Positions 3,363-54,135 are shown, counted from the stretch's first letter. The stretch is 64,000 bases of DNA from an uncultured Gammaproteobacteria bacterium (GCA_964590105.1 CAZPYM010000001.1:431782-495781); one strand, 5' to 3'. Numbers and translations are program-made. Notes: generated by a model from the letters alone, not told the origin.

Positions 3363-3372
3363 AAATATAGGT

Positions 3373-3427
3373 AGGGACAGTAGGGGCAGAATTATATTCT
3401 GCCCCTACTGTCCCTGCCCCTACTGTC
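3373..3427. repeat. perfect 20-bp inverted repeat (AGGGACAGTAGGGGCAGAAT / ATTCTGCCCCTACTGTCCCT, 3-nt loop) plus a third direct half-copy GCCCCTACTGTC, immediately 5-prime of the mutL start
   Basis: Read directly: 3373-3392 is the exact reverse complement of 3396-3415; the loop TAT and flanking bases spell TATAAT on the minus strand; 3416-3427 repeats 3401-3412. Confidence 0.8.
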
Positions 3428-3454
3428 ACTACCTTATCATATCTAAAAATTTTT

Positions 3455-3486
3455 GCAAAAAAAGGCGCCGTTACGTGTAACGACGC
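3455..3486 (-). terminator. rho-independent terminator downstream of the GC-rich 470-aa gene
   Basis: On the minus strand GCGTCGTTAC-ACG-GTAACGGCGC hairpin followed by CTTTTTTTGC (A-tract 3455-3463 on plus). Confidence 0.55.
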
Positions 3487-3538
3487 TCTTATTTATCGCC
3501 CCCCTAAGGGACTAATTTACTGTGCCTGTCTCACAGCC

Positions 3539-4951
3539 TCACAGCTTGATAATCCTGACTCCGAGGCCGGACAAACCTTCTTTCAACGAACTGAACAGCA
3601 TGGAAGCAAGCTCCCCGCCGGCCTGATTCGCCTTCGCGACTTCGTACACCGGCTTGTAGGCAGGATTCATGGCGGCCAGTTGCTCCAGCCTTTCAAAAAT
3701 CCGGTCAAAGACTGACGACAGGCGCTCCGTAAAGGCGTACTTGGCCGCCTCCTCGGCGAGAGCTGGACTCTCTTCCACCAGGGCAAGAATGCCTGCCGTG
3801 GAACAGTCGTCCGAAGTGAAGTATTCCTTCACCCGCGTCTCAATCGCCCGCGCTTCTTCGATCTTGGCGCGCTCCGCCTCGAACCGCGCCTGCAGATCAG
3901 TGAAGTACCCCCGATCGTCGCCCGCGCCGGCCAGCGCCGAAAGCTGTGCCCTCATCTGCGGCAACATTTCATCCTGCACCGCGAACGTGGCTACCGCCTT
4001 GCGGGGAAATGCCATGAGCGCATCCATGTCTCCGGTTGCCCAGGACGGCGGATTCACCGCCCGGAGCATTTCCATTTGCACCCGGACAATCTGCGCCTTG
4101 GTCTCATCCGAAAAGTCTGCGAGATCGCCCTCATAGTCGCCGCTCTCCATGGTCAGGTCCAGCTGATTCAGCGCAATGGCCTGGCGCAGAAAGCCAAGCA
4201 CCATGGCAAAGAAAAACTGATCCTGTTCCGCGCTCCGACCGATCGATTCGATTGTCTCCGCGAGCGAATGCAGGAGGCTGGGCATCCGATTGTTCACCAC
4301 CATTGCCAAACCGACGGCAGTGTCCGTATCCCGTGTTTCATTCATAAAATCGGCAATGAGATCAACAGCTTCCATCCTGATTTCGTCAGGACAGCAGCTG
4401 AAATCTCCATTTGCCTTGATCAACGCGTTGAAGCTTTCCTTGAAACCGGCTCGGCGTTCTACGAACGCCAAATACTTCAACGCTTCAGCGCTGCGCTCCG
4501 CGGACGGGCCGAGAGTACCGAGCGCCTTTTCCAAATCTGATCTGACCTGCGGCACAATACCGCTCAATTTCTCGAACACCGACTCCAGGATTACCTGTCC
4601 CAGGCACCTGTTGTGAATGAGCGGAACAACCATTGCGGCCACTCTTTGCTTGAGTTCTTCCGGCGCTGACACGAAATCGCCGTTCGCTTCACACAGATCC
4701 GCGAATTCGACGTACTGTTCCACGAACGCCGCAAGCTCGATCAGCCGATCGCGATTTTCTGCGCCGGCTTCAGCCGGTTTCCGCATTTCATCCAGCATAA
4801 ACGGCAGCAGGCCTTCGTCATGCTGACCCATCATTGCAGTGAAAATGCCTTCCCCATTGGCCAAATCATTTTGCAACTTTTCCATTTTCATTGCCAAGCA
4901 CTTTTTCAAGGCATGACAATCACGACACCTCGAATCTTCTTTCCTGATCAT
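3539..4951 (-). CDS. hypothetical protein, 470 aa, alpha-helical with internal repeats (ANGDF...PEEL / ANGDF...PDEI); GC-rich foreign-looking cassette between mutL and mutS
   Basis: Long ORF, about 57-60% GC against about 43% flanks; many spurious overlapping plus-strand ORFs, typical of GC-rich coding; perfect SD AAGGAGG 5 nt upstream of ATG (plus 4957-4963); no recognisable domain. Confidence 0.7.
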   Translation of the reverse strand: MIRKEDSRCRDCHALKKCLAMKMEKLQNDLANGEGIFTAMMGQHDEGLLPFMLDEMRKPAEAGAENRDRLIELAAFVEQYVEFADLCEANGDFVSAPEELKQRVAAMVVPLIHNRCLGQVILESVFEKLSGIVPQVRSDLEKALGTLGPSAERSAEALKYLAFVERRAGFKESFNALIKANGDFSCCPDEIRMEAVDLIADFMNETRDTDTAVGLAMVVNNRMPSLLHSLAETIESIGRSAEQDQFFFAMVLGFLRQAIALNQLDLTMESGDYEGDLADFSDETKAQIVRVQMEMLRAVNPPSWATGDMDALMAFPRKAVATFAVQDEMLPQMRAQLSALAGAGDDRGYFTDLQARFEAERAKIEEARAIETRVKEYFTSDDCSTAGILALVEESPALAEEAAKYAFTERLSSVFDRIFERLEQLAAMNPAYKPVYEVAKANQAGGELASMLFSSLKEGLSGLGVRIIKL

Positions 4952-5011
4952 GCGCGCCTCCTTGTTGTTGTTGCGCCAATCGACAAAACTGAAAAGAACA
5001 CTAGAAATAAG

Positions 5012-5040
5012 ATAGTATTATATTTTTAAATTTTTGTCAA
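5012..5040 (-). promoter_or_regulatory. candidate sigma70 promoter of the 470-aa gene (TTGACA-17-TACTAT on minus strand)
   Basis: Minus strand reads TTGACA (plus 5035-5040), a 17-nt spacer, then TACTAT (5012-5017), about 55 nt upstream of the SD/ATG. Confidence 0.45.
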
Positions 5041-8328: not shown

Positions 8329-8583
8329 TTAATTTTCTTCAACTTGTTTATTGTGTCTTTGTAACTCTTTAATCCTGGCTTTTAAATTCTCTGCTTCTTG
8401 TTCAAGGTTTTGAAGTATAACTTTGCATGAACGAATTTTTTCCTTTAATTCCCTTTTTGGCTCCGGATCTTTTTTCTGGTCCAACGGCTCTTCAAGCTCT
8501 TTTAAATTTTCTCTTTTTTGTTTTATCACTTGTTCTATTATACTCAATTCCTCTTCCAATGCTCTAAGCTGACTTTCAATCAT
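8329..8583 (-). CDS. hypothetical coiled-coil protein (84 aa)
   Basis: Heptad-like E/K/L-rich sequence; no recognised family. Confidence 0.45.
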   Translation of the reverse strand: MIESQLRALEEELSIIEQVIKQKRENLKELEEPLDQKKDPEPKRELKEKIRSCKVILQNLEQEAENLKARIKELQRHNKQVEEN

Positions 8584-8647
8584 TTCAATTGAGTCGTGAC
8601 GTGGCGGTAATTAAAATCTCCGTATATTTTTATTTAAGATTAATAAT

Positions 8648-9298
8648 TTATTTAGCTTTTCCTTGCAAAAATTTATCTCTAAGTTTTATCACACAATCTC
8701 TTAATCCATAATTAGAAGTTAAAAACCTGGGATCAGATTCACCCTGCACAACTTTTATTATTACCGGTTTTAAATAATCCTGCACCTCTAATTCTCTTCC
8801 TTGAGAATCATATAATTTATTTTCATACAAATCTAAAGAGCTGAAAAGATCTTCAACTGTTTTAGAATGAGCGATATTATATTGTAATTTAGTTCTTTCT
8901 ATAATTAAGGATACTTCAGTAAAATTAGGTATATTATGTCCACTAAGATAAATATCTGTTATTAAAGCCGATATATCCACTAATTGACCTTTCTCATCTT
9001 TATTAAAAATTTTTCCAATTCTTATTGTGCCTTTATTATATTTTTTTACCTCTGGCGATAGATTTTGGATATTACCCATTTCCACAATAACACCTCTATT
9101 ATCATAATAAAAATTTACTCCGGCGCAACTAAACTTTCTACCATTAACATCTCGACAGCCAGCATTCCCTCCAACAGATTTTTGGCTTAATACTTGTCGC
9201 ATTCTTTTGCCAATAAATTCCAAATTGGCGGAGACTAACATGTCTCTATCATTTTCTAAAGCTTCTGACGAACTTAGGACTTCTCTATTTGCATTCAT
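8648..9298 (-). CDS. hypothetical protein (216 aa)
   Basis: ORF of host-like composition in tandem with the two small genes above; no motif recognised. Confidence 0.5.
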   Translation of the reverse strand: MNANREVLSSSEALENDRDMLVSANLEFIGKRMRQVLSQKSVGGNAGCRDVNGRKFSCAGVNFYYDNRGVIVEMGNIQNLSPEVKKYNKGTIRIGKIFNKDEKGQLVDISALITDIYLSGHNIPNFTEVSLIIERTKLQYNIAHSKTVEDLFSSLDLYENKLYDSQGRELEVQDYLKPVIIKVVQGESDPRFLTSNYGLRDCVIKLRDKFLQGKAK

Positions 9299-11280: not shown

Positions 11281-11395
11281 GAGTTTGGGAATTAAAAGTT
11301 AAAAAGTGAAAGGTGAAAACCGAAATTCAGTTTACTCAATTAACTAGATTAACTTAATTAACTAGCTTAACTTGATTAACTTTACCACAAACCAC
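11281..11395. repeat. low-complexity word repeats (GAGATTAGAGATTAGAG; AAAAGTTAAAAAGTGAAAGGTGAAAACC; TTAACTAGATTAACTTAATTAACTAGCTTAACTTGATTAAC) upstream of alaS
   Basis: Read directly; the two halves are partially complementary. Confidence 0.55.
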
Positions 11396-11503
11396 GCCTA
11401 ACCATATATACTATTTTAGCTTAGAAATATACTTTTGACAAATGGGATTAATCACATTATTCGAACAACCACTTATTCAAATTTAGACAAAATCGAACAA
11501 CTA

Positions 11504-11532
11504 TTGACATTTACCGCACGGCATGCTATAAT
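11504..11532 (+). promoter_or_regulatory. consensus sigma70 promoter with extended -10 (TTGACA-17-TGcTATAAT)
   Basis: TTGACA 11504-11509; spacer 17 nt; TG 11524-11525; TATAAT 11527-11532; about 50 nt upstream of ATG 11582. Confidence 0.6.
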
Positions 11533-11581
11533 TAACTTTTGATCAATAATGTTCATTGCTCTATACAGTGGGAGGGAAATC

Positions 11582-12010
11582 ATGACGACTGATTCTGACA
11601 TGAAAGAGTACGAGGCCAGAAAGCAGAAGGCGCGACAAGCGGCCGAGGCGGAAGCTCGGCGAATCGCGGACGCGGAAACAGCCAAACTGGCCGGCGTCAG
11701 CCGGCACGTGCCGAAACAGGACTTCACCGACATGTGGCAAGAAGTGTACGACGTGGCCATTGCCAACATCATGGAATCATTCGAATTCGAAGAAGACATG
11801 CGCGACATTGACGCACAGATGCAGTACCCGTTCCCCGATGAAGCGCCGGATGCATTTGAACACGGATTCGACGCAGAAGGCAAGCTCGGCCTTCGCCGCC
11901 GGAATGTGTTCACCGACGCGGATTGCATGGACATGGCCATGTGTGAGGAGGAGCGCTGGAACGACGACTGGGTCATGACCGAAGAAGCATGGGGGCTGGA
12001 TCGCGATTGA
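11582..12010 (+). CDS. highly acidic hypothetical protein (142 aa; 37 D/E, net charge about -20, aromatic-rich), GC-rich cassette; DNA-mimic / anti-restriction candidate
   Basis: ATG 11582 preceded by GGAGGG 11571-11576 (5-nt spacing); GC about 58%; composition counted from the translation; own promoter and terminator. Confidence 0.7.
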   Translation: MTTDSDMKEYEARKQKARQAAEAEARRIADAETAKLAGVSRHVPKQDFTDMWQEVYDVAIANIMESFEFEEDMRDIDAQMQYPFPDEAPDAFEHGFDAEGKLGLRRRNVFTDADCMDMAMCEEERWNDDWVMTEEAWGLDRD

Positions 12011-12029
12011 TCTGGCCACCAGACAATAG

Positions 12030-12066
12030 CCCGCCTTTCGCGCAACGCGATTGGCGGGTTTTTTTA
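12030..12066 (+). terminator. rho-independent terminator
   Basis: CCCGCC-TT-TCGCG-CAA-CGCGA-TT-GGCGGG stem followed by TTTTTTTATTT. Confidence 0.7.
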
Positions 12067-12100
12067 TTTCACAAAATAATAATCGCTTCTTTTTCAAAAA

Positions 12101-13204
12101 TCACACAATCTCTCCCCCGCCCAGACATTCATCTCCCTGATAAAAAACACAGTATTGGCCGGGAGTGATTGCCCGCTCCGTTTTTTTCAGCTTAACAACA
12201 TATTTACTGGCCGCTGCTTTTTCCACAACACAAGCCAGATCTTTGGCGCGGTAGCGCACCCGACATTTGCATTTTAGCGGCAGTGAGGGAACTTGACCGG
12301 AAATCCAATTCACTTTTTTAACAACAAATTCTTTGTTTAAAATATCCTTCTCATCTTTGCTTACCCATAGCGTATTGTTTTTTTTATCCAGACGCACGAC
12401 ATACCACGGCCCGCCGGCCAGGCCAATCCCCTTGCGTTGACCAATTGTGTACAAGGGCAAACCATTGTGTTCGCCAATTATTTGCCTTGTAGACATTTCT
12501 AAAATATTTCCTTTTTCGAGTTTAATATATCTGGACAAAAATTCACCAATCTTATTATCCGCCACAAAACATATTTCCTGCGATTCTTTTTTTTCGGCGG
12601 TCGGCAATTTATATTTTTGAGCCAACTTTCTAACTTGTTCCTTGGTATAATTTCCAACCGGAAATAAAATATGCGCCAAATCTTTTTGTTTTATTTGATG
12701 CAAAAAATATGACTGATCTTTGTTTTTATCTTTTCCGCAGGACAATTTTATCTTTGCCCTTTGATCCTTGCCCTTTGATCCTCTTTGCTTTGCAAAGTGT
12801 CCCGTCGCCACAAAATCAATTCCCATTGGTTTTAATTTTTTCCACAGTTCACCAAATTTTATAAATTGATTGCATCGCACGCACGGATTCGGGGTACGGC
12901 CGCACTCGTATTCATTAACAAAATTGTCAACAATTTTTTTCTTGAACGGAAGCTTCATATCAATTACATAAAACGGGATGCCCAGCTTGCGACAAACTCG
13001 CCTGGCGTCTTCAGCAGATTCGAATGAACAGCAAATGTTTTCACGAACTTTGCCTTTCACTTTATCTGACCAAAATTTCATAAAAACGCCGACAACATCA
13101 TAACCTTGATCTAACAACAAGGCTGCGGCTACAGAAGAATCAACTCCACCGCTCATACCAACAGCGACTCGTTTATTTTTATTTTTTTTCATAATAACTA
13201 TCAA
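12101..13204 (-). CDS. mnmA: tRNA-specific 2-thiouridylase MnmA (start may be ATG at 13192)
   Basis: PP-loop SGGVDSS and the conserved MnmA C-terminal domain. Confidence 0.88.
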   Translation of the reverse strand: MIVIMKKNKNKRVAVGMSGGVDSSVAAALLLDQGYDVVGVFMKFWSDKVKGKVRENICCSFESAEDARRVCRKLGIPFYVIDMKLPFKKKIVDNFVNEYECGRTPNPCVRCNQFIKFGELWKKLKPMGIDFVATGHFAKQRGSKGKDQRAKIKLSCGKDKNKDQSYFLHQIKQKDLAHILFPVGNYTKEQVRKLAQKYKLPTAEKKESQEICFVADNKIGEFLSRYIKLEKGNILEMSTRQIIGEHNGLPLYTIGQRKGIGLAGGPWYVVRLDKKNNTLWVSKDEKDILNKEFVVKKVNWISGQVPSLPLKCKCRVRYRAKDLACVVEKAAASKYVVKLKKTERAITPGQYCVFYQGDECLGGGEIV

Positions 13205-13238
13205 AAAAGACGCTTTCCAGCGCCTTTTTTATATCATG

Positions 13239-13604
13239 TTAAGCTAATTTTTTCAAGGTCACCTTTACTTCCGGAACATAGGTATTATTATTTTCGTCCA
13301 CCACTTCCACTTTATTATTTTTCATCAATTCATTCCACATTATATCTGACAAAACCTGTCTTGTGTCACGAATATCTGTCCTGACGTCTTCCAAACTATT
13401 AAACTCTGAAGAATAATCTGCACGAATTATTTGTTCGATTTGTTTTTTCCTAGCGCGTAGCTTGGTCATTTCGTCCGCAATGTCCTGATATTCTTTCGTT
13501 CCCACAAAAGCCTCCTTGATAGTGGCGGTATATTCTTTTTGTTTCTTTTTTGCTTCCTGAATTTCATGATAAAGATCTTTGATTCGCTGTTGATTGTCAG
13601 ACAT
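13239..13604 (-). CDS. hypothetical coiled-coil protein (121 aa)
   Basis: Charged helical sequence; no family recognised. Confidence 0.45.
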   Translation of the reverse strand: MSDNQQRIKDLYHEIQEAKKKQKEYTATIKEAFVGTKEYQDIADEMTKLRARKKQIEQIIRADYSSEFNSLEDVRTDIRDTRQVLSDIMWNELMKNNKVEVVDENNNTYVPEVKVTLKKLA

Positions 13605-13777
13605 AAACTAATATTAATATTAAGTAAAGATAAACACAAAACTCATTATAACAAAACTGTTCAAAACAAACAATTGTGTATACAAAAACCGTTTTCAAAA
13701 CGGCCAATTTTCAACTTTTGTTATTTGTTATATTACGCAAATAAGAATCGTACGAATTACCAAGATTGCTGATCCTA

Positions 13778-13830
13778 ATTTGTTATTTGTAATTTGTTTG
13801 TGATTTGTTGTTTGTAATTTGTAATCTTTC
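13778..13830. repeat. degenerate heptamer tandem repeat, family TTTGTAA (TTTGTTA TTTGTAA TTTGTTT GTGATTT GTTGTTT GTAATTT GTAATC)
   Basis: Read directly; the same word family recurs at 18000-18170, 23400-23455 (reverse orientation) and 59841-59900. Confidence 0.7.
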
Positions 13831-15054
13831 ATTTTCGCCCGAAAGATACTGCTTTAACAAACGATAAACTTCTTCATAATTCATCCGGATCTTGGCGCCC
13901 ATAACCAGCGCAATTAATTCTTTATCATTATTTTTTGCCTGCGTTACCAAATTGTAGCCGGCTTCATCAGTCCAGCCGGTTTTGGAGCCAGTAATATACA
14001 AATCACGATTTAATAACTTTTCACTGGTATTTTGCACCCAATATACCAGCTCATTATTAAGCGGGCTAACCTTGTACCACCTGGTTGTGGTGGCTTTTAA
14101 TATTTCTAGATTATTAAACGCCTGCCTGGCAATCATCGCCATTTCCTCGGCCGTGGAAACATTGTGCTCATCCAGACCGGTCGGCTCGACAAAATAAGTA
14201 TTTGATAAACCCAGGTCAAGCGCTTTTTGATTCATCGATGCAATAAATTTATCCCGAGGCAAACCCGTCACGCGAGTCAGAGCTTCGGCGGCATTATTTT
14301 TTGACCCAACAAGCATGGCATAAAACAAATCTTTTACCAAAACCCGGTCGCCTTCCTTCACCCACAGCGTCGCGCCACCGACATAATCAGACTTTTGCAT
14401 GACAATTTCTTTGTCCCAGCCGGGATTATTCTCAAGGAAAACCAGAGCGGTCATTAATTTTGTCAAACTGGCGATTGAACGGACTTCATGCGAATTTTTT
14501 GTAAATAAAACATTGCCGGAAGATTTATCCATGACAATAGCGGATTCAGCCGTCAGCGACTCTGGATCATCTTCCAAAACCGCTATCTTGGCATAGGGGA
14601 AAATTGTTTTTGCGCGAGCAGTTTTATTTTCAAAATCAATTGTTGTCGGAAGCGCCCGCCATTTCCCTTGATGATTGTCATAAAAATATATTGACTTAGC
14701 CTCGACGTTTTCACTTTCAAAAGCCAGAGACAACAAAACCGGCTTAGCCAAAAAACCGGCTTTATTTGTTTTTATGTCATAAGAATAAAATCCGCTGACT
14801 GCCCTTTTCTTGTCCAGCAGAGAATCAACATTATCAGTATTGGCAATGCTTACTATTAAACTGTCTTTGTATTGACCGGAAAAAACAGGGATCCAAAGTT
14901 GTTTGTCAGCGCTTTTGACTGTAAATCCCCTTGCTAATGTTTGTTCATTAAAACTAACAACCACAAAATCAACAACCTTGGCATCAGCCGCCTGATAAAT
15001 CGCAAAAGTGAATACGATTATTGATATTAAAATTATCCACCTTTTTATATCCAT
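13783..15054 (-). CDS. D-alanyl-D-alanine carboxypeptidase (PBP5/DacB-like serine peptidase S11) with an N-terminal extra domain; C-terminal tail encoded by the heptamer repeat
   Basis: SxxK (SIASLTKLMT), SxN (VGSKNNAAE), N-terminal signal/TM; the last 12 codons overlap the TTTGTAA repeat, so the true stop is uncertain. Confidence 0.75.
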   Translation of the reverse strand: MDIKRWIILISIIVFTFAIYQAADAKVVDFVVVSFNEQTLARGFTVKSADKQLWIPVFSGQYKDSLIVSIANTDNVDSLLDKKRAVSGFYSYDIKTNKAGFLAKPVLLSLAFESENVEAKSIYFYDNHQGKWRALPTTIDFENKTARAKTIFPYAKIAVLEDDPESLTAESAIVMDKSSGNVLFTKNSHEVRSIASLTKLMTALVFLENNPGWDKEIVMQKSDYVGGATLWVKEGDRVLVKDLFYAMLVGSKNNAAEALTRVTGLPRDKFIASMNQKALDLGLSNTYFVEPTGLDEHNVSTAEEMAMIARQAFNNLEILKATTTRWYKVSPLNNELVYWVQNTSEKLLNRDLYITGSKTGWTDEAGYNLVTQAKNNDKELIALVMGAKIRMNYEEVYRLLKQYLSGENERLQITNNKSQTNYK

Positions 15055-15195
15055 ATTTTTCTCAAAACGCGTATCGCATAACGCATTGCGCGTAACGTAA
15101 AACGACTAACTCATCATTATAAACACAAATTTCAAACGCTTTATTAACAACGTTTGAAATTGCTCTGTGCCTTAAAATTCCTGCTTTATTTTAGT

Positions 15196-15669
15196 TTACA
15201 TTTTGATAATTCCGGCCGGCGTCACTTTGTAACAGCCTCCCAGATTAAACTCATTAACACCCTTTTCCAAATTAAAAAGAATCTCATAATCCGTCGGTTC
15301 CAGCCGGGTAAAACTATAATTACACCCTTTATCGGCACAGGCACCCGCATTGGCGCAACTTACGTCAAGAACTTTCGGATCATTTGTTTTTACCAAACCA
15401 GGCATTACTTTCACCAGCACTGAATTTTCTTTTTTGGAACACAGGCTGACAAAAGTCAGATCGCAATACGCCTGATCATAACCGCCAGTTTCATTTTTTA
15501 CCACTTCGAGCGCACTCCGGAGCGTCTGCATGTCGCTGATCCTTTTTGAATCTCTGATTTGTCGTTGCTTTGAATTTAACGAAATCACAAGCAAAGTCAA
15601 AATCAAACCTATGATTCCGACTACAATTAAAATTTCAACTAATGTAAAGCCTTTTAGTCTAGATTTCAT
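15196..15669 (-). CDS. type IV pilin-like protein (prepilin; start corrected to MKSRLKGFTLVE...)
   Basis: Class III signal KG/FTLVEILIVVGIIGL, prepilin peptidase site G-F, N-terminal hydrophobic helix; ATG at 15669. Confidence 0.75.
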   Translation of the reverse strand: MKSRLKGFTLVEILIVVGIIGLILTLLVISLNSKQRQIRDSKRISDMQTLRSALEVVKNETGGYDQAYCDLTFVSLCSKKENSVLVKVMPGLVKTNDPKVLDVSCANAGACADKGCNYSFTRLEPTDYEILFNLEKGVNEFNLGGCYKVTPAGIIKM

Positions 15670-15694
15670 ATAACTCCCATATTGAATTTTCCTA

Positions 15695-16165
15695 TTACTT
15701 CTTAACAATTCCCGTGTTAGACATACTATAACAACCGGCCTCTTTAAACATTCCGGCTCCAGTCTCCAGATAGAACTCAACAGCATAAGTACTCGCCGAT
15801 AGCATTCGCACTGCATATTCACAGCCAGCGACACAGTTACCCGCAACTATACAACTTCCGGCTGTTCCAATCGGGTCTTTAAGATTCTTAATTGTTGGCA
15901 AAAACCCTTCCAAAGCTCCACCAGTACACTGATATAACATTTTTCCCGCAAAACAAGTATTCTCTGGCTTGTACGAGCCACTTTCATTATTAACCAACTC
16001 AAACGCTGTTTTCAGCGCGTCCATATCGCTTAGCCGCTTGGTATCGCGTCCTTTTTCTCTGACATTGCCAAGCGAAACAACAGCCAGTGAAGATAAAAGC
16101 CCAATGATTGCAATCACAACCAAAAGCTCAATCAAAGTAAAACCTTTTTGCTTTTTCATAAACAT
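15695..16165 (-). CDS. type IV pilin-like protein (paralog 2)
   Basis: MKKQKGFTLIELLVVIAIIGLLSSLAVVSLGN...; Cys-rich C-terminal domain. Confidence 0.75.
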   Translation of the reverse strand: MFMKKQKGFTLIELLVVIAIIGLLSSLAVVSLGNVREKGRDTKRLSDMDALKTAFELVNNESGSYKPENTCFAGKMLYQCTGGALEGFLPTIKNLKDPIGTAGSCIVAGNCVAGCEYAVRMLSASTYAVEFYLETGAGMFKEAGCYSMSNTGIVKK

Positions 16166-16200
16166 TTAACAATTAATTTTTATTTTATCATTTCAATTTA

Positions 16201-16662: not shown

Positions 16663-16720
16663 TTAATTAAATTTTATATATATGACTTTGTTATTTGTGA
16701 CTTTCGCTGTTTTAATTATA

Positions 16721-17926: not shown

Positions 17927-17999
17927 AGTAGAGTAGTGAGTGGTGAGTGGTAAGTGGTGCTTGCCCTGTACCCGAACGAAGAGAGTGGTATAGGAAGTG

Positions 18000-18170
18000 G
18001 TGAATAAAACGAAAATCACAAATTCCGAACTACAAATCACAAACAATAAAGTATAAATAACAAATTACAATCAACTTTACTATCAATCAAGTTAGATTCT
18101 GACGCCTTTGGATTCATTTGAAATTTGTAATTTGTTTGTAATTTGGAATCTGTACTTTGTGATTTACAGT
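18000..18170. repeat. intergenic heptamer-word repeats in inverted orientation (ACAAATCACAAACAA...AACAAATTACAATCAA at 18020-18070, then TTTGTAATTTGTTTGTAATTTGG at 18121-18150), a potential long imperfect hairpin between pilB and pilC
   Basis: Read directly; 18121-18145 is the reverse complement of the ACAAATTACAAA words upstream. Confidence 0.65.
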
Positions 18171-18171
18171 T

Positions 18172-19932: not shown

Positions 19933-19962
19933 TCAGACGTTATTAATATCAAATTTTTAATT

Positions 19963-21013: not shown

Positions 21014-21056
21014 AATAATTTATCAACGAATGCGGATAACACAGGGTGAAGGTTAT

Positions 21057-25253: not shown

Positions 25254-25333
25254 GTGTTTATTATACAACAAATTATCGCAAATAAAAAATCGCCCTGTCT
25301 TAACAGAACGATTGTCTTGCTTATAAAATCTCG

Positions 25334-25591
25334 CTACATCCAAACCCGAGGATCATTGTTCGGATCATCGTCGTCAGCTTCCTGCCAAACATCCAACCAT
25401 TTGCCGACAACAAACGAAGCGAGCCCTATGCCCAGCCCGACGACCGCCGCACAAAACGTTTGTACATCGCTCAAATTGATAATTTGAAACGTCGGCCCCA
25501 GCAATATGGCGCCGGCCACAATCAAACAGCCAAGCGTCATTCCCAAACGCGGCAAAAAATATTTCAGAGAATTCTTCATGGCCACCTCCAC
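25334..25591 (-). CDS. small hypothetical membrane protein (two TM)
   Basis: Two hydrophobic helices, acidic C-terminus (EADDDDPNNDP). Confidence 0.4.
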   Translation of the reverse strand: MEVAMKNSLKYFLPRLGMTLGCLIVAGAILLGPTFQIINLSDVQTFCAAVVGLGIGLASFVVGKWLDVWQEADDDDPNNDPRVWM

Positions 25592-25708
25592 GGTTTGAAT
25601 TTTGAATGAACCTAATAAACCGATTGTTAATGTTATAAAAATATAAGAGATTTGTCAAGACTGAAAATCCGAGATTGGCGCCGGATCTTTGAATAAAACT
25701 TCGCACCC

Positions 25709-28010: not shown

Positions 28011-28026
28011 TAAGGCAAAAAAAAGG

Positions 28027-28060
28027 CCGCCCATGGCAGACGCCGGGCGGCTTTGTTGTT
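28027..28060 (-). terminator. rho-independent terminator of the metallophosphoesterase cassette
   Basis: GCCGCCC...GGGCGGC stem (28027-28051); on the minus strand it is followed by CTTTTTTTTTGCC (A-tract 28013-28024 on plus). Confidence 0.6.
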
Positions 28061-28800
28061 CAACTTCCTTCATACAGTCGCTTGGTAAGAATACCGTCGA
28101 GATTGAGCTTTTTCATTTCAGCAACCGTTTCATCAATCCTGTACGAAACGCGCCGATACTCTGCCAAGAGCTTGTGGCGGAAAAAATCCACCACCATGTA
28201 ACAGGCGCGCGGGTCATCGTCGCGCGGCTGGCCGACGCTACCCACATTGATGGCGAACTTCGACGGGAAACGAACCTCCAGCGGCGAATGTGACATACCA
28301 AGCTTTACTAATCCATGCTTGATGTGGTAGATTGCCGGCTGATGAGTATGGCCAAAGAACAAAACCGGCGTCGCAACAGCCGTCAACTGCTGGCGGGCGA
28401 TATGTTCGTTGCGAATATACTCCCAGCCGTCAGGATCTGTCCAGTTCGCGTGAACCATTGAAATTCCCAGGTTGGGAATATCCATGGCCATTTCCAGTCC
28501 CCGCAAAAAGGCCAGATCATCAGCCTTGAGCATTTTGGCATTCTGCGCCATTGCCAACAACGCCGGGTAATTATGATTGGCCATGTTGCAGCCATGCCCC
28601 ACGCCAAAATCATGATTTCCCATGAGCGTCAGATTGCAATGCTCCCTGGCCCAAGCAATGCATTCCCGCGGAAACGGACCATAACCGGTCACATCGCCGA
28701 GGCAGTAGATCACATCAACGCCCATTGTGGCAATGTCTTTCGCAACGGCTCGCAGAGCCGGCCAATTGCTGTGAATGTCCGACAATATCGCCGCTCTCAT
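28060..28800 (-). CDS. calcineurin-like metallophosphoesterase (GC-rich cassette)
   Basis: Motifs DIHSN (D-x-H), LGDVTGYGP (GDxxDRG-like), LMGNHD (GNHD/E), FFGHTHQ; GC about 55%; SD AGGAGGA 5 nt upstream of ATG. Confidence 0.75.
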   Translation of the reverse strand: MRAAILSDIHSNWPALRAVAKDIATMGVDVIYCLGDVTGYGPFPRECIAWAREHCNLTLMGNHDFGVGHGCNMANHNYPALLAMAQNAKMLKADDLAFLRGLEMAMDIPNLGISMVHANWTDPDGWEYIRNEHIARQQLTAVATPVLFFGHTHQPAIYHIKHGLVKLGMSHSPLEVRFPSKFAINVGSVGQPRDDDPRACYMVVDFFRHKLLAEYRRVSYRIDETVAEMKKLNLDGILTKRLYEGS

Positions 28801-28850
28801 TGTATCCTCCTATCGTTGTTTTGCTAAATATTACCAAACTAAAACATTAT

Positions 28851-28879
28851 ATGATAGCATGACAACCAAAGATTGTCAA
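28851..28879 (-). promoter_or_regulatory. sigma70 promoter with extended -10 (TTGACA-17-TGcTATCAT on minus strand)
   Basis: Reverse complement of plus 28874-28879 = TTGACA; reverse complement of 28851-28856 = TATCAT, preceded by TGc. Confidence 0.5.
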
Positions 28880-30826: not shown

Positions 30827-31036
30827 ATTATAATTTGAACTTGCCGCCTGCCCGCCGAAGCCTTGGCGAAGGCGGGTGATCAATGTGAACAATAATACAA
30901 AAATTACGAATATTATTCATAACAAAAACTTAAACAATTGTTGCGAGTGATTACATAATAGCCAAAAACCGCCAAAAAATCAATACACAAAAAAAGGACC
31001 CGCGCTGGGATCCTTTGCTCTATGTCATTTCTTTTT

Positions 31037-31216
31037 TCAACTTTTCTTGTTTTTCGGAGTCAACGATGTTGAAAGTGGCTGACCTGTTGGTTGCACATAA
31101 TCAGATAACTTAAAGGTTCCATTCTCCAACGTCTCTGCTATATCCGGCGGCAGAGCCTTTGCCTTGCTGCCTTCAAGCATGCACCATTTTCCGCCAACTT
31201 TTCTGATATGCGCCAT
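31037..31216 (-). CDS. hypothetical 59-aa protein (MAHIRKVGGKWCMLEG...), second gene of a two-gene cassette
   Basis: ATG 31216 with perfect SD GAGGAGGA 5 nt upstream, overlapping the stop of the upstream gene; not in the ORF track (under 60 aa). Confidence 0.4.
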   Translation of the reverse strand: MAHIRKVGGKWCMLEGSKAKALPPDIAETLENGTFKLSDYVQPTGQPLSTSLTPKNKKS

Positions 31217-31227
31217 TTGATCCTCCT

Positions 31228-31482
31228 CTATTCCTCCGCCAAAAGTTTCATCAACTCGTCCAAAGAATATCGGCGATCCTTACCGCTCTTTGCTTCTTCA
31301 TATCCCGCCGCCACTCTATCGCGAAAAGCAGGGTCGGTATTCAGTCTTTGTTCAAATCGTATTCTCACCAATTCTTCTTCCGTCAACTGCTCCGGCAGAC
31401 CGTCTTCTCCTTTTGGAAAACACTCGGCCATGGCGCAAAAGCCGCTTTTTTCGCCGCCTTTCTTGTTGTCTTTATCCGTCAT
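31228..31482 (-). CDS. putative addiction-module antitoxin-like protein (84 aa)
   Basis: C-terminal ...FRDRVAAGYEEAKSGKDRRYSLDELMKLLAEE resembles the 'putative addiction module component' antitoxin family C-terminal helix (my recollection, not searched); GC about 50%; SD GGAGGG. Confidence 0.45.
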   Translation of the reverse strand: MTDKDNKKGGEKSGFCAMAECFPKGEDGLPEQLTEEELVRIRFEQRLNTDPAFRDRVAAGYEEAKSGKDRRYSLDELMKLLAEE

Positions 31483-31574
31483 CTAGCCCTCCGTTGCCAT
31501 AACAGTCCAATTTAGTTTATCATAATGGCTTTAATTAATCAATAATCATAGATTTCATTATTTGCAATCATTTT

Positions 31575-35121: not shown

Positions 35122-35150
35122 TTGACATTACAATAAAATTTGCTTATATT
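35122..35150 (+). promoter_or_regulatory. sigma70 promoter (TTGACA-17-TATATT, TGc just upstream)
   Basis: TTGACA 35122-35127; TATATT 35145-35150. Confidence 0.5.
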
Positions 35151-35192
35151 TAAATGTCAAACAGTTTTGTCCAACAACGAGGAGGGGCATTA

Positions 35193-35843
35193 ATGGACAA
35201 AAACAGAGCTCCGCCAAAAAAACAGTTCTTTGCCAAAGTAAGGCAAAAAATTTCAGATGAACGTTGTATTGTAGCCATTGAAGTGGCCTACAATATTGCC
35301 AAAGAAGCGCACCGTCAGCAACAGCGCAAAGACGGAGAACGCTATTTTGACCACGTCAAAGCCGTTGCCTGGATTCTGCTCACAGAAACAGGAATTACTG
35401 ATCAATTACGGCTAACAATTCTGTTAACAGCAGCCCTGCTACATGACATTATTGAAGACACCTTTGTTGCCAAGCGCCGGCATCTTAAATTCATGTTTGA
35501 TCAGGTTTCTCCGGACATCACCGCAGTCGCCTGGGAAGTGACAAAAGTCAAGGTGAACGATCCGCAAAAAAAATGGCGAAAACTGCTGGCCAGCAATCGG
35601 GTACCGACCAAGCTGGTCAAAGCGGCCGATCGACTGCACAATCAACGAACTCTGCTTTACTGCAGTCGCCGTCAGATCAGAAAGAAAAACAAAGAAACCA
35701 GAAACACGATCCTGCCATGGCTACGCACCAATCTTGAGACGATAGATGAGCAAAGCCGTCAGCAAATACTCGCCCTGGTCGATAAAATTGAAAAGCAAAC
35801 CGCGGCTAACGAAGAATGGCTGAAAAGCCAGAGAAAAAAATAA
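35193..35843 (+). CDS. HD-domain (p)ppGpp hydrolase-like protein (small alarmone hydrolase, RelA/SpoT HD family)
   Basis: H...R..G.....H...VAWIL...............AALLHDIIEDT HD motif; ATG 35193 with SD GAGGAGGGG; GC about 47%. Confidence 0.7.
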   Translation: MDKNRAPPKKQFFAKVRQKISDERCIVAIEVAYNIAKEAHRQQQRKDGERYFDHVKAVAWILLTETGITDQLRLTILLTAALLHDIIEDTFVAKRRHLKFMFDQVSPDITAVAWEVTKVKVNDPQKKWRKLLASNRVPTKLVKAADRLHNQRTLLYCSRRQIRKKNKETRNTILPWLRTNLETIDEQSRQQILALVDKIEKQTAANEEWLKSQRKK

Positions 35844-35845
35844 AA

Positions 35846-35880
35846 CAGCATCCTTACATCAGGAGCTGTTTATTTTTTTA
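35846..35880 (+). terminator. intrinsic terminator (probably bidirectional, shared with the minus-strand pfkB gene)
   Basis: CAGCATCCT-tacatc-AGGAGCTG followed by TTTATTTTTTTAT. Confidence 0.5.
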
Positions 35881-35897
35881 TTGAAAGTATTAACAAT

Positions 35898-37114: not shown

Positions 37115-37384
37115 TCACTGGCCATTGCTTTCCTTCCACAAAGGCGGTTGTGAATTCGCAACCGCTTCAATCTTTTCAATAAGCTCCGACAATTCCTCTG
37201 CGGTCGGCTCATCGAAAATAGAAATCGCCAGCGGACAGATGAAGCCATCGAAAACCCTAAGCTCAATCTGCCTAGGTTTTGCAAATTCACGACGACAGAA
37301 AACGATTAAGGCAATCAAAGTCCCATAAGCTATCAAAAGCGTCAGAATCATACCCGCAAAAAAATATGGGTCATGGAAGTTCAT
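37115..37384 (-). CDS. small hypothetical membrane protein (89 aa)
   Basis: One TM (FFAGMILTLLIAYGTLIALIVF), SD AAGGAGGG before ATG 37384. Confidence 0.4.
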   Translation of the reverse strand: MNFHDPYFFAGMILTLLIAYGTLIALIVFCRREFAKPRQIELRVFDGFICPLAISIFDEPTAEELSELIEKIEAVANSQPPLWKESNGQ

Positions 37385-37411
37385 TGTTTCCCTCCTTGTC
37401 AAAGGACAAAA

Positions 37412-45045: not shown

Positions 45046-45280
45046 ATTAGTATACTTATTTTACTTGTTAAATCATAATAAATCAAGCGCAGTTATTCAC
45101 TGATAATTATACAATATTTTCAATAAATATACAAACATTTCAATTAGCCCAATTAAACCGAATTTTGTAGTTTAATATTGATAATTTCCGCTCCAAATAT
45201 TTTTTAAAAACGCCCCACCTCTTGTAACCTTTACTACTAGTATCCATATCGGCTAAATTTACAACAAAGACCAACTAGCA

Positions 45281-45309
45281 TTGACTTTTTTTAAAAAACA
45301 TGCTACAAT
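45281..45309 (+). promoter_or_regulatory. sigma70 promoter with extended -10 (TTGACT-17-TGcTACAAT)
   Basis: TTGACT 45281-45286; TG 45301-45302; TACAAT 45304-45309. Confidence 0.55.
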
Positions 45310-45343
45310 TATTTGTTCATAAACAATATAATGGAGAAAGAAA

Positions 45344-45622
45344 ATGATCGGAATCGACGGCCTTTTTCAAGTAGTAATTGCCTTTGTCCTCACAATTTTC
45401 ATTTTCGGAGTGCTCATCAACATGGCACTCTTGCCCTTCCCGAAGTCGTGGCAAAAGGCTGTCAACAAGGCCGGCAAGAACGCCATCGTGGCAATCTGGA
45501 CCGGCGCCTGGAGACTGGTATTCTGGATACTCACAGCTCCCTTCATCGGCATCTGGCGCGCCATCCGGAGGATGCGCAACCAACCGCCGCCGCCCCGCCC
45601 TCAAGGCAATCAGCGTCGATGA
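45344..45622 (+). CDS. small two-TM membrane protein with a basic proline-rich C-terminus (92 aa), GC-rich cassette
   Basis: Two hydrophobic helices; SD GGAGA; GC about 55%; the overlapping antisense ORFs are composition artifacts. Confidence 0.6.
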   Translation: MIGIDGLFQVVIAFVLTIFIFGVLINMALLPFPKSWQKAVNKAGKNAIVAIWTGAWRLVFWILTAPFIGIWRAIRRMRNQPPPPRPQGNQRR

Positions 45623-45643
45623 CGATGATCCCGCCAACACAAA

Positions 45644-45680
45644 ACACTGCCGTTCTCGCCTGGCAGTGTTTTTCTTTTTA
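45644..45680 (+). terminator. rho-independent terminator
   Basis: ACACTGCC-gttctcgcct-GGCAGTGT followed by TTTTCTTTTT. Confidence 0.65.
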
Positions 45681-46643: not shown

Positions 46644-46674
46644 TTAATTCATTTTAATAATATCTTTTAATTAT

Positions 46675-46702
46675 TGACAAATATTATTTTCTACATTATA
46701 AT
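46675..46702 (+). promoter_or_regulatory. sigma70 promoter (TTGACA-16-TATAAT)
   Basis: TTGACA 46675-46680; TATAAT 46697-46702. Confidence 0.55.
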
Positions 46703-46747
46703 CTAACGACTGCATTTATTTTTCACACCAGAAAAAGGAGGTGTGCC

Positions 46748-47131
46748 ATGAAAGAGCTCGGCCGCCATGTGTTGATTGAATTTTATGAATGCGCCACCGA
46801 GGCGCTGAACAACCTAGAATTCATTGAAGAACAAATGCTCGAAGCCGCCAGATTGACGGGCGCGACCATTGTCGGCAAAATCTTCCACCGATTCAGTCCA
46901 CACGGTGTTTCAGGCGCAGTGGTGATTGCTGAGTCGCACCTCACGATTCACACCTGGCCGGAATACGACTACGCGGCAGTTGATCTTTTCACCTGCGGAC
47001 CAACCGTTGATCCGTGGAAAGCTTTCACTCACCTGCAAACCGCAATCGGTTCCAAACGCACTTCTCAGACTGAGATCCGACGCGGGCTTTTTCCACAAAA
47101 CGTCAGCCACAAGCCCGGCGCTGACGGATGA
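46748..47131 (+). CDS. speH: S-adenosylmethionine decarboxylase proenzyme (small SpeH type), GC-rich cassette
   Basis: [11 protein letters not shown]..., self-processing site region ...[11 protein letters not shown]; perfect SD AAGGAGGTG; GC about 52%. Confidence 0.8.
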
Positions 47132-47156
47132 CTGGCGATAATTAATCGCCCAATTT

Positions 47157-47196
47157 TCAAAAAGCTGCATCTTCACAGAGCAGCTTTTTCTTTTAC
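47157..47196. terminator. bidirectional intrinsic terminator between speH (+) and cysS (-)
   Basis: AAAAAGCTGC-atcttcacagag-GCAGCTTTTT with A-tract and T-tract on both sides. Confidence 0.65.
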
Positions 47197-51714: not shown

Positions 51715-51734
51715 ATATAATCATGACACTGCAA

Positions 51735-52322: not shown

Positions 52323-52737
52323 AATTATTAAATTCCTTTAATTGTTTTTTTACTTCGCTATCAGTCATGAAAAAGGTTGCTTGTTCATCCGGATCAATCG
52401 GAACAGGTTTCGAGGCGGAAAAATTGAATTCCTCGGACTTGATACATTTAATTTTCTTTTGCCTGGCCAGATACCTGATTTCCTTGTCCGACGTAACCAG
52501 AACATACATGGAAGGATTATCGCACTTATCAATCAATCGGGCAATACCGTCATCAGCATCGCCTGTGAATATCACCTGAACAAAATTTGTGTTCAAGTCA
52601 TGCGGACACCGGCCATCAAAAATAATTATGGCTGTTTTTCTCCTTGTTCGGCAAAATTCATTCACCGCGTTAATCAGGCCTTCTTTTTCCGGAAAGTCAG
52701 TTTGATACAGCAAGTTGTAGCCATCTATTAAGTACAT
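52303..52737 (-). CDS. NYN/YacP-like PIN-fold domain protein (predicted RNase)
   Basis: YLIDGYNLL...IIIFDGR...VTSD conserved acidic residues typical of the YacP/NYN family. Confidence 0.55.
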   Translation of the reverse strand: MYLIDGYNLLYQTDFPEKEGLINAVNEFCRTRRKTAIIIFDGRCPHDLNTNFVQVIFTGDADDGIARLIDKCDNPSMYVLVTSDKEIRYLARQKKIKCIKSEEFNFSASKPVPIDPDEQATFFMTDSEVKKQLKEFNNFENKNI

Positions 52738-52810
52738 GTATAATAATTTTGCAAAATACTTATTATTATCGCAATATATTAGCTAAATTTAGACAAAACC
52801 ATCATTACTA

Positions 52811-52839
52811 TTGACTTTTTATGTAAAATATAATATAAT
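52811..52839 (+). promoter_or_regulatory. sigma70 promoter (TTGACT-17-TATAAT)
   Basis: TTGACT 52811-52816; TATAAT 52834-52839. Confidence 0.55.
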
Positions 52840-52910
52840 GTATTGATTTAATCTGTTCATTTCACTAACCGTCTCAGGCAGCTATGCCACAAATAGCAAA
52901 GGGAGAAAAC

Positions 52911-54035
52911 ATGGGAAAGAAAGCGTGGACATTCGCAATTCTGCTGGGGCTTGTAGCTTCTATTTCCGTACCATGGATTGTTATCAAGATCGTTGCCAAG
53001 ACGCAGAGCCCCGAGACGCACGAGCCGACGATGATGGAGAACGGCGACAACCCGGTAGAGTCCGGCCAGGACGAGCCCACAATGATGGAAAACAGCGACA
53101 ACCCGGTAGAGTCAAGCCAGGACGAACCCACGACTCTTCGCCTGCCGATGTACGTACAAACGACGGTCCAGGCGCGCCTCCTCACGATGGAGGAACTGGC
53201 CTTGGACTTTCCGGAAAACTATGACATTGAACAACGGGGTGACTATCACAGAATCGCCAAGAACTGCACGGCGACCGAACTGGCCACCAAGGCTGATTGC
53301 CTGCCGCTCACCGGCTGGTTCAAGAAGGCTTACTTGAAGTCTGACGGTTCCATTACCGTGGACTTCCAATGCAATCCAAACGACTCGCGAATGTGTACCG
53401 TGCTTTTGCGCGGACCTGTAAGCGATGGAACTGTCTACGGCTGTGGTCTTCCGGATGCGGCCCTCGAAGATATCCTCGTCATGGACTTACTTGGCGCCGG
53501 ATATAGCCTTCTGAAAGACGGGGCAGTCGAATACATCCGCTACGGCGGCAAAGACCTAACCGGCGGCCACCATTCATTCTTCATCAAGGACGGCCTGATC
53601 TATGGTAGGTACGGAACCGATGAAGAGCTCGTGCGCCGCGCTGACGGCTCGTTTGTCCGCGAAAGCGGCTCGTTCGCCGAGCAGATCAGGAAAGAGGCTC
53701 AGGCTAAGAAAGTGCTGGACTTTCTCGGCTCCGGATACTCCATGCGCTACGACGCCGTGTTCGAGTTTATCCAATACGACAAGCAGGACGTGGTGCCTCG
53801 CGGCTACCATTACTACATCCTCCGCGATGATCGGATCTACGGCATTCTCGGCGCGACCGAAGAGGAAGTTCTCGCCAACCGGCCGAAGATTCCGCCAGAA
53901 AAAAGGGATATGATCGGTCAATCATGTCTTTGTCCGGATCTCGGACTTGGGACATGGGTGGAACTCGGGTACAAAGAGCTGGTCTGCGTTCATCTGCCGG
54001 AAAGAGGTCCCATCTGCCATTCCAACTGCTTCTAG
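52911..54035 (+). CDS. secreted hypothetical repeat protein (GC-rich cassette; alternative upstream start 52884)
   Basis: Signal peptide MGKKAWTFAILLGLVASISVPWIV; tandem EPTMMENxDNPVESxQD repeats; duplicated about 55-aa module (LLGAGYSLLKDGAVEYIRYGGKD... / FLGSGYSMRYDAVFEFIQYDKQD...); SD GGGAGA before 52911; GC about 57%. Confidence 0.65.
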   Translation: MGKKAWTFAILLGLVASISVPWIVIKIVAKTQSPETHEPTMMENGDNPVESGQDEPTMMENSDNPVESSQDEPTTLRLPMYVQTTVQARLLTMEELALDFPENYDIEQRGDYHRIAKNCTATELATKADCLPLTGWFKKAYLKSDGSITVDFQCNPNDSRMCTVLLRGPVSDGTVYGCGLPDAALEDILVMDLLGAGYSLLKDGAVEYIRYGGKDLTGGHHSFFIKDGLIYGRYGTDEELVRRADGSFVRESGSFAEQIRKEAQAKKVLDFLGSGYSMRYDAVFEFIQYDKQDVVPRGYHYYILRDDRIYGILGATEEEVLANRPKIPPEKRDMIGQSCLCPDLGLGTWVELGYKELVCVHLPERGPICHSNCF

Positions 54036-54101
54036 CCAAACTCGCCCAGTCCCAACATCCGTTGGGCAAGCCCCGGGCAAATTCAACAAAATAATTGAAA
54101 G

Positions 54102-54135
54102 GAGTTCAAGCCTCACCGCTTGAGCTCTTTTTTAT
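54102..54135 (+). terminator. rho-independent terminator
   Basis: GAGTTCAAGC-ctcaccgc-TTGAGCTC followed by TTTTTTATT. Confidence 0.6.

Follow-up and report, generated by a model that had tools for sequence, protein, structure and literature searches.

Shine-Dalgarno-led stand-alone gene units between the operons of a Parcubacteria-type chromosome segment with Shine-Dalgarno-less core genes

The 64,000-nucleotide stretch CAZPYM010000001.1:431782-495781 of assembly GCA_964590105.1, hereafter the window (positions are counted from its first letter), belongs to a natural metagenome-assembled genome (MAG) of Parcubacteria-type Patescibacteria (candidate phyla radiation, CPR) with strongly conserved gene order. 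By greedy open reading frame (ORF) calling, about 50 core genes were mapped in it, almost all on the minus strand and in tightly packed operons, including mutL, mutS, alaS, mnmA, a type IV pilus cluster (pilB/C/M and a pilin gene), rnhA, recJ, lepA, murJ, ackA, pduL, pfkB, glyS, frr, mreB, dusB, cysS, dnaJ, and the hrcA-grpE-dnaK operon. Every LepA-anchored locus among the GTDB species representatives came from a MAG of the Patescibacteria/Parcubacteria group, and the top LepA match was 'Ca. Kuenenbacteria' bin.190 (82% identity). Window proteins recur exactly on contigs of several independent public assemblies (ENA, JGI, Logan), with the same context and 100% nucleotide identity, which argues for a natural MAG rather than a chimera. 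Between the housekeeping genes (mutL/mutS, alaS/mnmA, recJ/lepA, and similar flanks) lie eight short units, c1 to c8, which disrupt no gene and which a first-pass annotation had described as GC-rich cassettes inserted between conserved genes; all eight islands are present where it had placed them. We found that every ORF of these cassettes is led by a Shine-Dalgarno (SD) sequence, a signal absent from the core genes around them.

Unit c1 (3457..5040, minus strand) contains an ORF at 3539-4951 for an acidic, all-alpha protein of 470 amino acids (aa) with an N-terminal Cys cluster. Its signals are a promoter, TTGACA-17-TACTAT, at 5040-5012, the SD AGGAGG at 4962-4957 (-11.2 kcal/mol), and a terminator stem at 3486-3465 followed by a T-run. 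The structure model of c1 reached a predicted local distance difference test (pLDDT) score of 82 and the fold search gave no informative match; c1 represents an orphan family, all-alpha, in which the Cys cluster is conserved. Unit c2 (11479..12066, plus strand) encodes a 142-aa protein with an isoelectric point of 4.3 (ORF 11582-12010), preceded by the A/T-rich tract AAATTTAGACAAAA (11479-11492), a promoter matching 12 of 12 consensus positions (TTGACA-17-TATAAT with TGn, 11504-11532), and the SD GGGAGGG (-10.7 kcal/mol), and followed by a terminator at about 12028-12066. About six tandem 9-bp units (TTAACTNNA) are found at 11324-11377, between the alaS start and the c2 promoter. Unit c3 (28017..28879, minus strand) has a 246-aa ORF at 28060-28800, the promoter TTGACA-17-TATCAT with TGn at 28879-28851, the SD AGGAGG at 28811-28806, and a terminator at about 28054-28017. 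Its product, already recognised as a metallophosphoesterase in the first-pass annotation, matches Pfam Metallophos_2 (1.3e-16) and is predicted to be a calcineurin-like phosphoesterase. Unit c4 (30986..31495, minus strand) is made of two ORFs, 31228-31482 (84 aa) and 31037-31216 (59 aa), each with its own SD (-10.0 and -11.8 kcal/mol, respectively), and has a terminator at 31016-30993 and no good promoter of its own. The two adjacent small ORFs had been regarded as a toxin-antitoxin-like pair, but their proteins gave no Pfam, NCBIfam, PADLOC, or PHROG match and had no homologue in the fetched loci.

Unit c5 (35122..35882, plus strand) encodes a 216-aa protein with an HD_4/RelA-SpoT hydrolase-type domain (ORF 35193-35843) and carries the promoter TTGACA-17-TATATT (35122-35150), the SD GAGGAGGGG, and a terminator at about 35845-35882. 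The protein matches Pfam HD_4 (1e-10) and TIGR00691 (1.7e-18, over only the first 143 positions of the model), and it contains the HD motif LLHDIIEDT and no synthetase domain, as a small alarmone hydrolase would; c5 is thus a putative RelA/SpoT-type HD hydrolase, in agreement with the (p)ppGpp hydrolase proposed before. Unit c6 (45253..45680, plus strand) encodes a 92-aa protein with two hydrophobic segments and a basic Pro/Arg tail (ORF 45344-45622); the near-palindrome CTAAATTTAC (45253-45262) stands ahead of the promoter TTGACT-17-TACAAT with TGn (45281-45309), the SD is weak (GGAG), and the terminator lies at 45641-45680. Unit c7 (46674..47196, plus strand) has the promoter TTGACA-17-TATAAT (46674-46702), the SD AGGAGGTG at 46736, a 127-aa ORF at 46748-47131, and a terminator at about 47159-47196. 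Judging from its matches to Pfam AdoMet_dc (3e-41) and to the TIGR03330 equivalog (148.7 bits, cutoff 75.65), and from its self-cleavage ESH motif, c7 is predicted to be a bona fide pyruvoyl-type S-adenosylmethionine (AdoMet) decarboxylase, which had gone unrecognised. Unit c8 (52783..54136, plus strand) encodes a 374-aa protein (ORF 52911-54035) with an N-terminal hydrophobic segment and 10 Cys residues. Upstream are the palindrome CTAAATTTAG within AAATTTAGACAAAA (about 52783-52798), the promoter TTGACT-17-TATAAT (52811-52839, 11/12), and the SD GGGAG (-8.6 kcal/mol), and the terminator is at about 54100-54136. The c8 protein contains a 17-aa tandem repeat (51 nucleotides at the DNA level) and gave no protein-family, phage, or viral match; its single-sequence structure model was unusable (pLDDT 37) and gives no function. 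It is probably a Cys-rich exported protein with an N-terminal anchor.

Scanning beyond the core genes for SD-led ORFs returned the eight units and two further junction ORFs that the count of eight had missed. One is at 25334-25579 (81 aa, two hydrophobic segments, GC content at third codon positions, GC3, of 0.57) in a minus-strand unit at 25288..25658, with the promoter TTGACA-17-TAACAT at 25658-25630, the SD GGAGGTGG (-10.6 kcal/mol), and a terminator at 25313-25288; the rnhA junction of a relative, L175 (L numbers denote loci of relatives), holds an SD-led 84-aa gene (13030-13284) with a similar SD context. The other is at 37115-37384 (89 aa, one hydrophobic segment, GC3 0.48; 37115..37396, minus strand), between g37412 and pfkB, with the SD AGGAGG at 37396-37391 (-11.7 kcal/mol) and no PADLOC match. 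Their hydrophobic segments mark these two, like c6, as small membrane proteins.

All nine cassette ORFs carry an SD, with anti-SD pairing energies of -6.4 to -13.1 kcal/mol, whereas the mean of 48 core genes is -0.25 kcal/mol, the strongest reaches -4.8 kcal/mol, and none has an SD. The strong SD that had been claimed for all eight cassettes is therefore even more distinctive than stated (9/9 ORFs versus 0/48 core genes). Likewise, infA, rpsM, rpsK, rpsD, rpoA, rplQ, rplM, and rpsI, which lie elsewhere in this genome on a different contig, have no SD. The A+T content of core leaders is 78%, and U occupies position -1 in about 82-83% of core genes compared with 0/9 cassette ORFs; AU-rich, SD-less core starts with U at -1 were noted in the window and in L167, L171, L172, and L175. 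Among 152 genes called in the window genome and in those of five relatives, with SD-led defined as -8 kcal/mol or stronger, SD energy was bimodal (27 SD-led genes, 119 without SD). The two classes differ in U at -1 (5/27 versus 97/119; Fisher p = 1e-9) and in GC3 offset from the core (+0.169 versus -0.006; Mann-Whitney p = 3e-10). Across 102 loci, an SD of -8 kcal/mol or stronger precedes 5% of core genes, 28% of the genes that fill junctions, 54% of GC-rich fillers, and 13% of AT-rich fillers. Furthermore, SD and consensus promoter are kept in most cassette orthologues of relatives, including those with native GC. We found no description of an SD-led gene class or of a native U(-1) context in the literature on SD usage in CPR, and the split into two gene classes appears undescribed there.

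Seven of the eight units, all but c4, have a sigma-70 promoter matching 10-12 of 12 consensus positions, as had been claimed. Within positions 1-60000, eight sites match at least 11/12, five of them being cassette promoters; the native infA and hrcA promoters match the consensus equally well. The TGn/CATGCTA context attributed to four cassettes is present in only three (c2, c3, and c6). As for terminators, the seven claimed ones were found, and the exclusion of c4 did not hold, since c4 has one too (30993-31016). Thus the description of the units as self-contained and expression-ready stands, with their own SD and terminator throughout and their own promoter in 7/8. An exact 14-mer, AAATTTAGACAAAA, which contains or resembles the palindrome CTAAATTTAG, is common to c2 and c8 and lies 25-26 nucleotides upstream of the -35 element in both. 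Motifs like CTAAATTTAG also lie upstream of -35 in several c6 orthologues (L095, L099, and L093), and in L095 and L099 the motif occurs twice, 21 nucleotides apart, before the promoter. This upstream motif would be either an UP element or a regulator site. As an operator enriched throughout the window, CTAAATTTAG was rejected (2 sites versus 4.1 expected), and it is notable only by its position upstream of cassette promoters.

In composition, 27 core genes of at least 300 aa served as the reference (GC3 0.418, standard deviation 0.022; GC 0.422, standard deviation 0.019). GC3 is 0.67 in c1, 0.70 in c2, 0.61 in c3, 0.70 in c6, 0.58 in c7, and 0.68 in c8, and these six stand out from the core by z scores of 3 to 5 for GC3 and of 5.6 to 8.3 for total GC. 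By synonymous-codon log-likelihood under the core model, c1, c2, c6, c7, and c8 are outliers (z -2.3 to -6.6) and c3 is borderline (z -1.9). The two c4 ORFs (GC3 0.51 for 31228-31482 and 0.45 for 31037-31216) and c5 (0.47) are marginal, c5 being no outlier. Accordingly, the compositional distinctness asserted for all eight cassettes, the usual sign of horizontal acquisition, is seen in c1, c2, c3, c6, c7, and c8 and is lacking in c4 and c5, and the wider claim that composition and expression signals set the cassettes apart from host genes is sustained by the GC3 outliers and by the SD absent from the core. In the GC3-outlier cassettes, first and second codon positions are also GC-shifted and the amino acids change with them, with more Ala and Arg and fewer Lys, Ile, and Asn. 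High-expression codon bias as the source of the GC3 excess was ruled out, as ribosomal-protein genes of the same genome have a core-like GC3 of 0.34-0.47, and structured RNA as the cause of the GC islands was rejected, since neither an Rfam family nor a tRNA was found in the window. A second kind of non-core gene, deviating in the opposite direction, was observed at 8329-9298 and 59880-60907, where AT-rich accessory genes (GC3 0.19-0.36) have no SD.

Gene order is kept in the LepA-, DusB-, and AlaS-anchored loci of more than 100 Patescibacteria genomes, yet the junctions that hold cassettes vary among them, with gaps from 6 bp to 4.9 kb that are empty or filled with different genes. A gap of more than 400 bp is present in 62% of genomes at lepA|recJ, 51% at murJ|lepA, 94% at dusB|g44518, 48% at cysS|dusB, and 33% at pfkB|pduL, whereas the intra-operon junctions ackA|pduL, frr|g39852, g44518|mreB, grpE|hrcA, and cysS|g48668 were never filled in related loci. 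Although the presence of the units varies among relatives, other species carry homologues of c1, c2 (a weak one), c3, c5, c6, c7, and c8 at the corresponding junction. The c1 counterpart is P0242 of L177, between mutS and mutL. The c1 promoter, SD, and terminator are homologous to those of L177, and the non-coding parts together with the hairpin in front of mutL align at 72-77%, with compensatory changes in the terminator; the proteins are only 37% identical, compared with 65% for MutL and 77% for MutS. The alignment of promoter, SD, and terminator indicates that the entire c1 unit is orthologous, and together with the same-slot homologues for 7/8 this makes the units long-term residents rather than recent insertions. 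The weak c2 homologue, at the mnmA|alaS junction of L169 (9387-9746; 32% over 66 aa, pairwise E 8e-7), is SD-led with a GC3 of 0.60 against a core of 0.33.

The closest homologues of c3 all lie between lepA and recJ (L174, 64%; L175 and L176, 44%; L010, 37%; L006, 30%). In L174, L175, and L010 a clear SD (-9.8 to -11.8 kcal/mol) precedes the annotated ATG of the homologue, which also has a consensus promoter, and the L006 homologue has no SD at a credible start. Orthologues of c5 at the same pfkB|pduL junction were found in L003 (74%), L175 (59%), L005, L015, L132, and L004; their SD pairing spans -5.9 to -12.6 kcal/mol, being strong in L175 and L005 but weak in L003 and L004, and a near-consensus promoter precedes most of them. 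Nearly all close relatives have a member of the c6 family of small membrane proteins, encoded antisense between dusB and g44518, with GC3 of 0.37-0.87 and with SD and consensus promoter conserved. At the cysS|dusB junction, which is empty (96 bp) in L083, c7 orthologues are present in L084, L087, and L088 (58-59%) and in L085 and L089 (33-34%), and all five have a GC3 equal to that of the core. A partial c8 homologue lies beside the NYN gene in L087 (35% over 178 aa, the match being ended by the contig end). In L169, the closest GTDB relative, seven GC-rich genes, every one of them SD-led, form a 9.5-kb block after alaS (12073-21489), at the place where the window has mutS-c1-mutL. Its genes encode a 470-aa orphan, a 571-aa protein, a VWA protein, an OmpA-like protein, a 291-aa protein, TelA, and an NMT1-like protein; the 470-aa orphan equals c1 in length yet is unrelated to it.

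We favour, at a probability of roughly 0.6, the reading that the cassettes belong to a clade-wide second class of genes, namely stand-alone accessory genes in operon-boundary slots of a rigidly syntenic Parcubacteria-type chromosome. Each unit would be transcribed alone from a near-consensus sigma-70 promoter that has a -35 element, an A/T-rich tract upstream, and in many cases a TGn extended -10, would be translated via canonical pairing of SD and anti-SD, and would end at its own intrinsic terminator; having its own promoter and terminator, it would neither depend on nor disturb the adjoining operons. The core genome, ribosomal-protein genes included, would initiate translation from AU-rich, SD-less leaders that carry U at -1. 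The occupants of the slots would have been gained, lost, and replaced over evolutionary time, many of them being old. The class may ultimately be foreign, derived from SD-using, GC-richer donors. It may spread or be replaced without mobility genes of its own, through uptake of DNA and homologous recombination within the conserved flanks; the host, with its type IV pilus genes, is presumably able to take up DNA. The SD may have been kept because the native, AU-rich mode of initiation is closed to GC-rich 5' ends. The composition of junction fillers in relatives is consistent with such an origin. Filler GC spreads five times as widely as core GC (standard deviation 0.076 versus 0.014) and its regression on core GC has a slope of 0.59, which fits a gene pool partly decoupled from each host, and low-GC genomes contain GC-rich fillers, just as high-GC genomes contain AT-rich ones.

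Several results weigh against this reading and give some room to a distinctly less probable alternative, in which the cassettes are a native specialised class of endogenous, vertically inherited, fast-evolving, SD-led junction genes whose GC3 was raised in place. The genome would then have two initiation regimes, an SD-less U(-1) core and an SD mode for strongly promoted junction genes, and SD-dependent initiation could conceivably mark a distinct, separately controlled translational programme, for example via the availability of free anti-SD. The GC3 excess of SD-led junction genes, about +0.17 and up to +0.5, is seen even in syntenic orthologues. For c1 it amounts to 0.67 versus a core of 0.42 here (+0.25) and 0.84 versus 0.60 in L177 (+0.24), and for c3 to 0.61 versus 0.42 here (+0.19) and 0.75 versus 0.60 in L174 (+0.15). 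Moreover, some c6 orthologues reach a GC3 of 0.73-0.87, above the maximum core value of 0.70 among 101 sampled loci. Neither the kept offsets of c1 and c3 nor the extreme c6 values are predicted by acquisition followed by amelioration or by exchange within the clade; the persistent excess could come from repeated allelic replacement from unsampled GC-rich sources or from enrichment in place. No donor was identified, as the nearest c3 homologues are same-slot CPR genes and non-CPR ones are only 36-41% identical; same-species contigs are all 100% identical, which leaves no presence/absence polymorphism to be seen. In addition, no 16S rRNA gene lies in the window or in any of 177 loci, and the anti-SD motif is reported missing in about half of Parcubacteria 16S genes (PMC9297842). 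A native class is further suggested by the regulatory DNA of c1 being better conserved than its protein, by the conservation of SD, promoter, and upstream CTAAATTTAG-like motif in c6 orthologues and the shared AAATTTAGACAAAA spacing to -35 in c2 and c8, and by the core-like GC3 of ribosomal-protein genes, which leaves ordinary high-expression codon bias aside. Enrichment in place might come from GC-biased conversion at recombination-prone junctions, or from selection, for instance on mRNA stability or structure in strongly expressed monocistronic mRNAs. However, fillers in high-GC relatives are AT-richer than the core (33% below -0.15 and none above +0.15), the opposite of what universal GC-biased gene conversion predicts, and that process was rejected. 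Orthologues of c5, c6, and c7 with native GC3 in several genomes also speak against a native class, as do the GC-shifted first and second codon positions and amino acids, which fit long residence in a GC-richer genome, and the L169 block, which resembles a classical acquired island.

The first-pass annotation had favoured recently inserted, phage-moron-like mobile cargo forming a genome-specific anti-defence or host-manipulation toolkit. Self-contained signals, deviant composition, and the absence of gene disruption at any site are what such cargo would show, and c1 had no homologue by word-based search and c4 none in the fetched loci or family libraries. This idea is now improbable and largely refuted by synteny: comparison with relatives, the check that the annotation had itself proposed for its acquired cassettes, returned same-junction homologues for 7/8 in other species. 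There is no prophage context; IMG/VR viral contigs contained no close relative of c1, c2, c3, c4a, c7, and c8, phage genomes searched by tblastn gave no match for c1 and c8, and PHROG matches were only to generic phosphoesterase, HD, and AdoMet decarboxylase families. The reported lack of integrase, transposase, and attachment repeats was reproduced: Pfam and NCBIfam searches revealed no integrase or transposase domains in cassette proteins, and only short AT-rich chance repeats, none of them att-like, flank the units. A 21-nucleotide repeat pair around c1, considered as an integration scar, is low-complexity sequence. PADLOC, whose models cover defence systems only and not anti-defence proteins, matched none of ten proteins, and the cargo that can be identified belongs to metabolism of a housekeeping type; a set for anti-defence or host manipulation is unsupported, and nothing in family searches or PADLOC supports the suggested DNA mimic. 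The eight genes form no single functional system: some encode small-molecule enzymes, others envelope or exported proteins, and the rest are orphans. They may still represent the distributed accessory regulon offered as an alternative in the first-pass annotation, as they share an expression architecture absent from the core. That GC-rich foreign fragments were spliced into a CPR contig by chimeric assembly or binning is the least credible explanation, to which we attach almost no weight. Public contigs of the same clone do end inside cassettes far above chance (c1 at 3646 and 4347, c7 at 46935-46940, and c8 at 53152), which may be due to GC-dependent coverage dips or to k-mers shared with other alleles in the samples. 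But the junctions are identical in the independent assemblies, promoter and terminator fit each ORF exactly, and orthologous cassettes occupy the same sites in MAGs of other species.

Among described systems, the closest concept would be the minimal mobile elements (MMEs) of Neisseria (Saunders & Snyder 2002; Snyder et al. 2007), going by the definition quoted in PMC3082526. Like MMEs, the cassettes lie at junctions where more than 100 related loci have either no gene or different ones, lack integrase, transposase, and repeats, often deviate in GC, and occur in a host with type IV pilus genes. MMEs vary among strains of one naturally transformable species and their exchange by homologous recombination is documented, whereas cassette variation was seen only between species, many occupants are ancient, and exchange is inferred. 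The SD/no-SD split, in an otherwise SD-less genome, and the systematic, persistent GC3 excess are features of the cassettes and not of MMEs, and would go beyond that concept. The cassettes also resemble phage morons, which are lone genes with their own promoter and terminator, unlike their neighbours in composition, between prophage genes: they are single genes with autonomous promoter and terminator and deviant composition. They differ in that they lie between housekeeping operons rather than in a prophage, have no phage relatives, and are syntenic across species. Integron gene cassettes are promoterless ORFs followed by attC and arrayed beside intI/attI, whereas the units here have their own consensus promoters and T-tailed terminator hairpins and are scattered singly over 50 kb.

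SD-poor initiation in Bacteroidota is said to have been described by Accetto & Avgustin 2011, Baez et al. 2019, and Jha et al. 2021. As there, core genes including ribosomal-protein genes are SD-less with A/U-rich leaders and a small minority has a strong SD; in contrast, the minority here is a defined class (stand-alone, junction-located, variable, and GC3-rich), and native starts carry U at -1 in place of the A-rich pattern of Bacteroidota. Integration hotspots and genomic islets in bacterial chromosomes, reportedly treated by Oliveira et al. 2017, similarly gather accessory genes in few intergenic sites between core genes, but the slots here are of single-gene scale, in a tiny reduced genome, without mobile-element hallmarks, and with a common expression architecture.

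CPR make up a large share of bacterial diversity, and gene expression and gene acquisition in them are barely known. If the split holds genome-wide, SD presence, non-U at -1, and GC3 excess would be a simple marker of accessory or foreign genes; ribosomes of a lineage whose core ignores SD would still use it for some genes, which bears on the reported loss of anti-SD in many Parcubacteria; and defined chromosomal slots would undergo gene turnover without mobile-element machinery. The persistent GC3 excess in syntenic orthologues would be a test case for in-place enrichment versus repeated replacement.

A few observations concern the core genes. A long perfect hairpin lies about 10 nucleotides upstream of the mutL start codon (3369-3434), with a conserved promoter-like site, TTGCAA-N16-TAAGGT, ahead of it. 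At the equivalent position, L177 has a hairpin of different sequence (about 2770-2830), and the shared place with compensatory changes suggests a conserved stem-loop in the 5' untranslated region of mutL mRNA. In L025 (7288-9540) and L029 (1065-3359), the lepA match is in two pieces about 400 bp apart, which could be an insertion or an intein-like element. Finally, the hrcA promoter (TTGACA-18-TAGAAT with TGn, 57845-57880) ends only 8 nucleotides ahead of the ATG, so that the hrcA-grpE-dnaK mRNA is probably leaderless.

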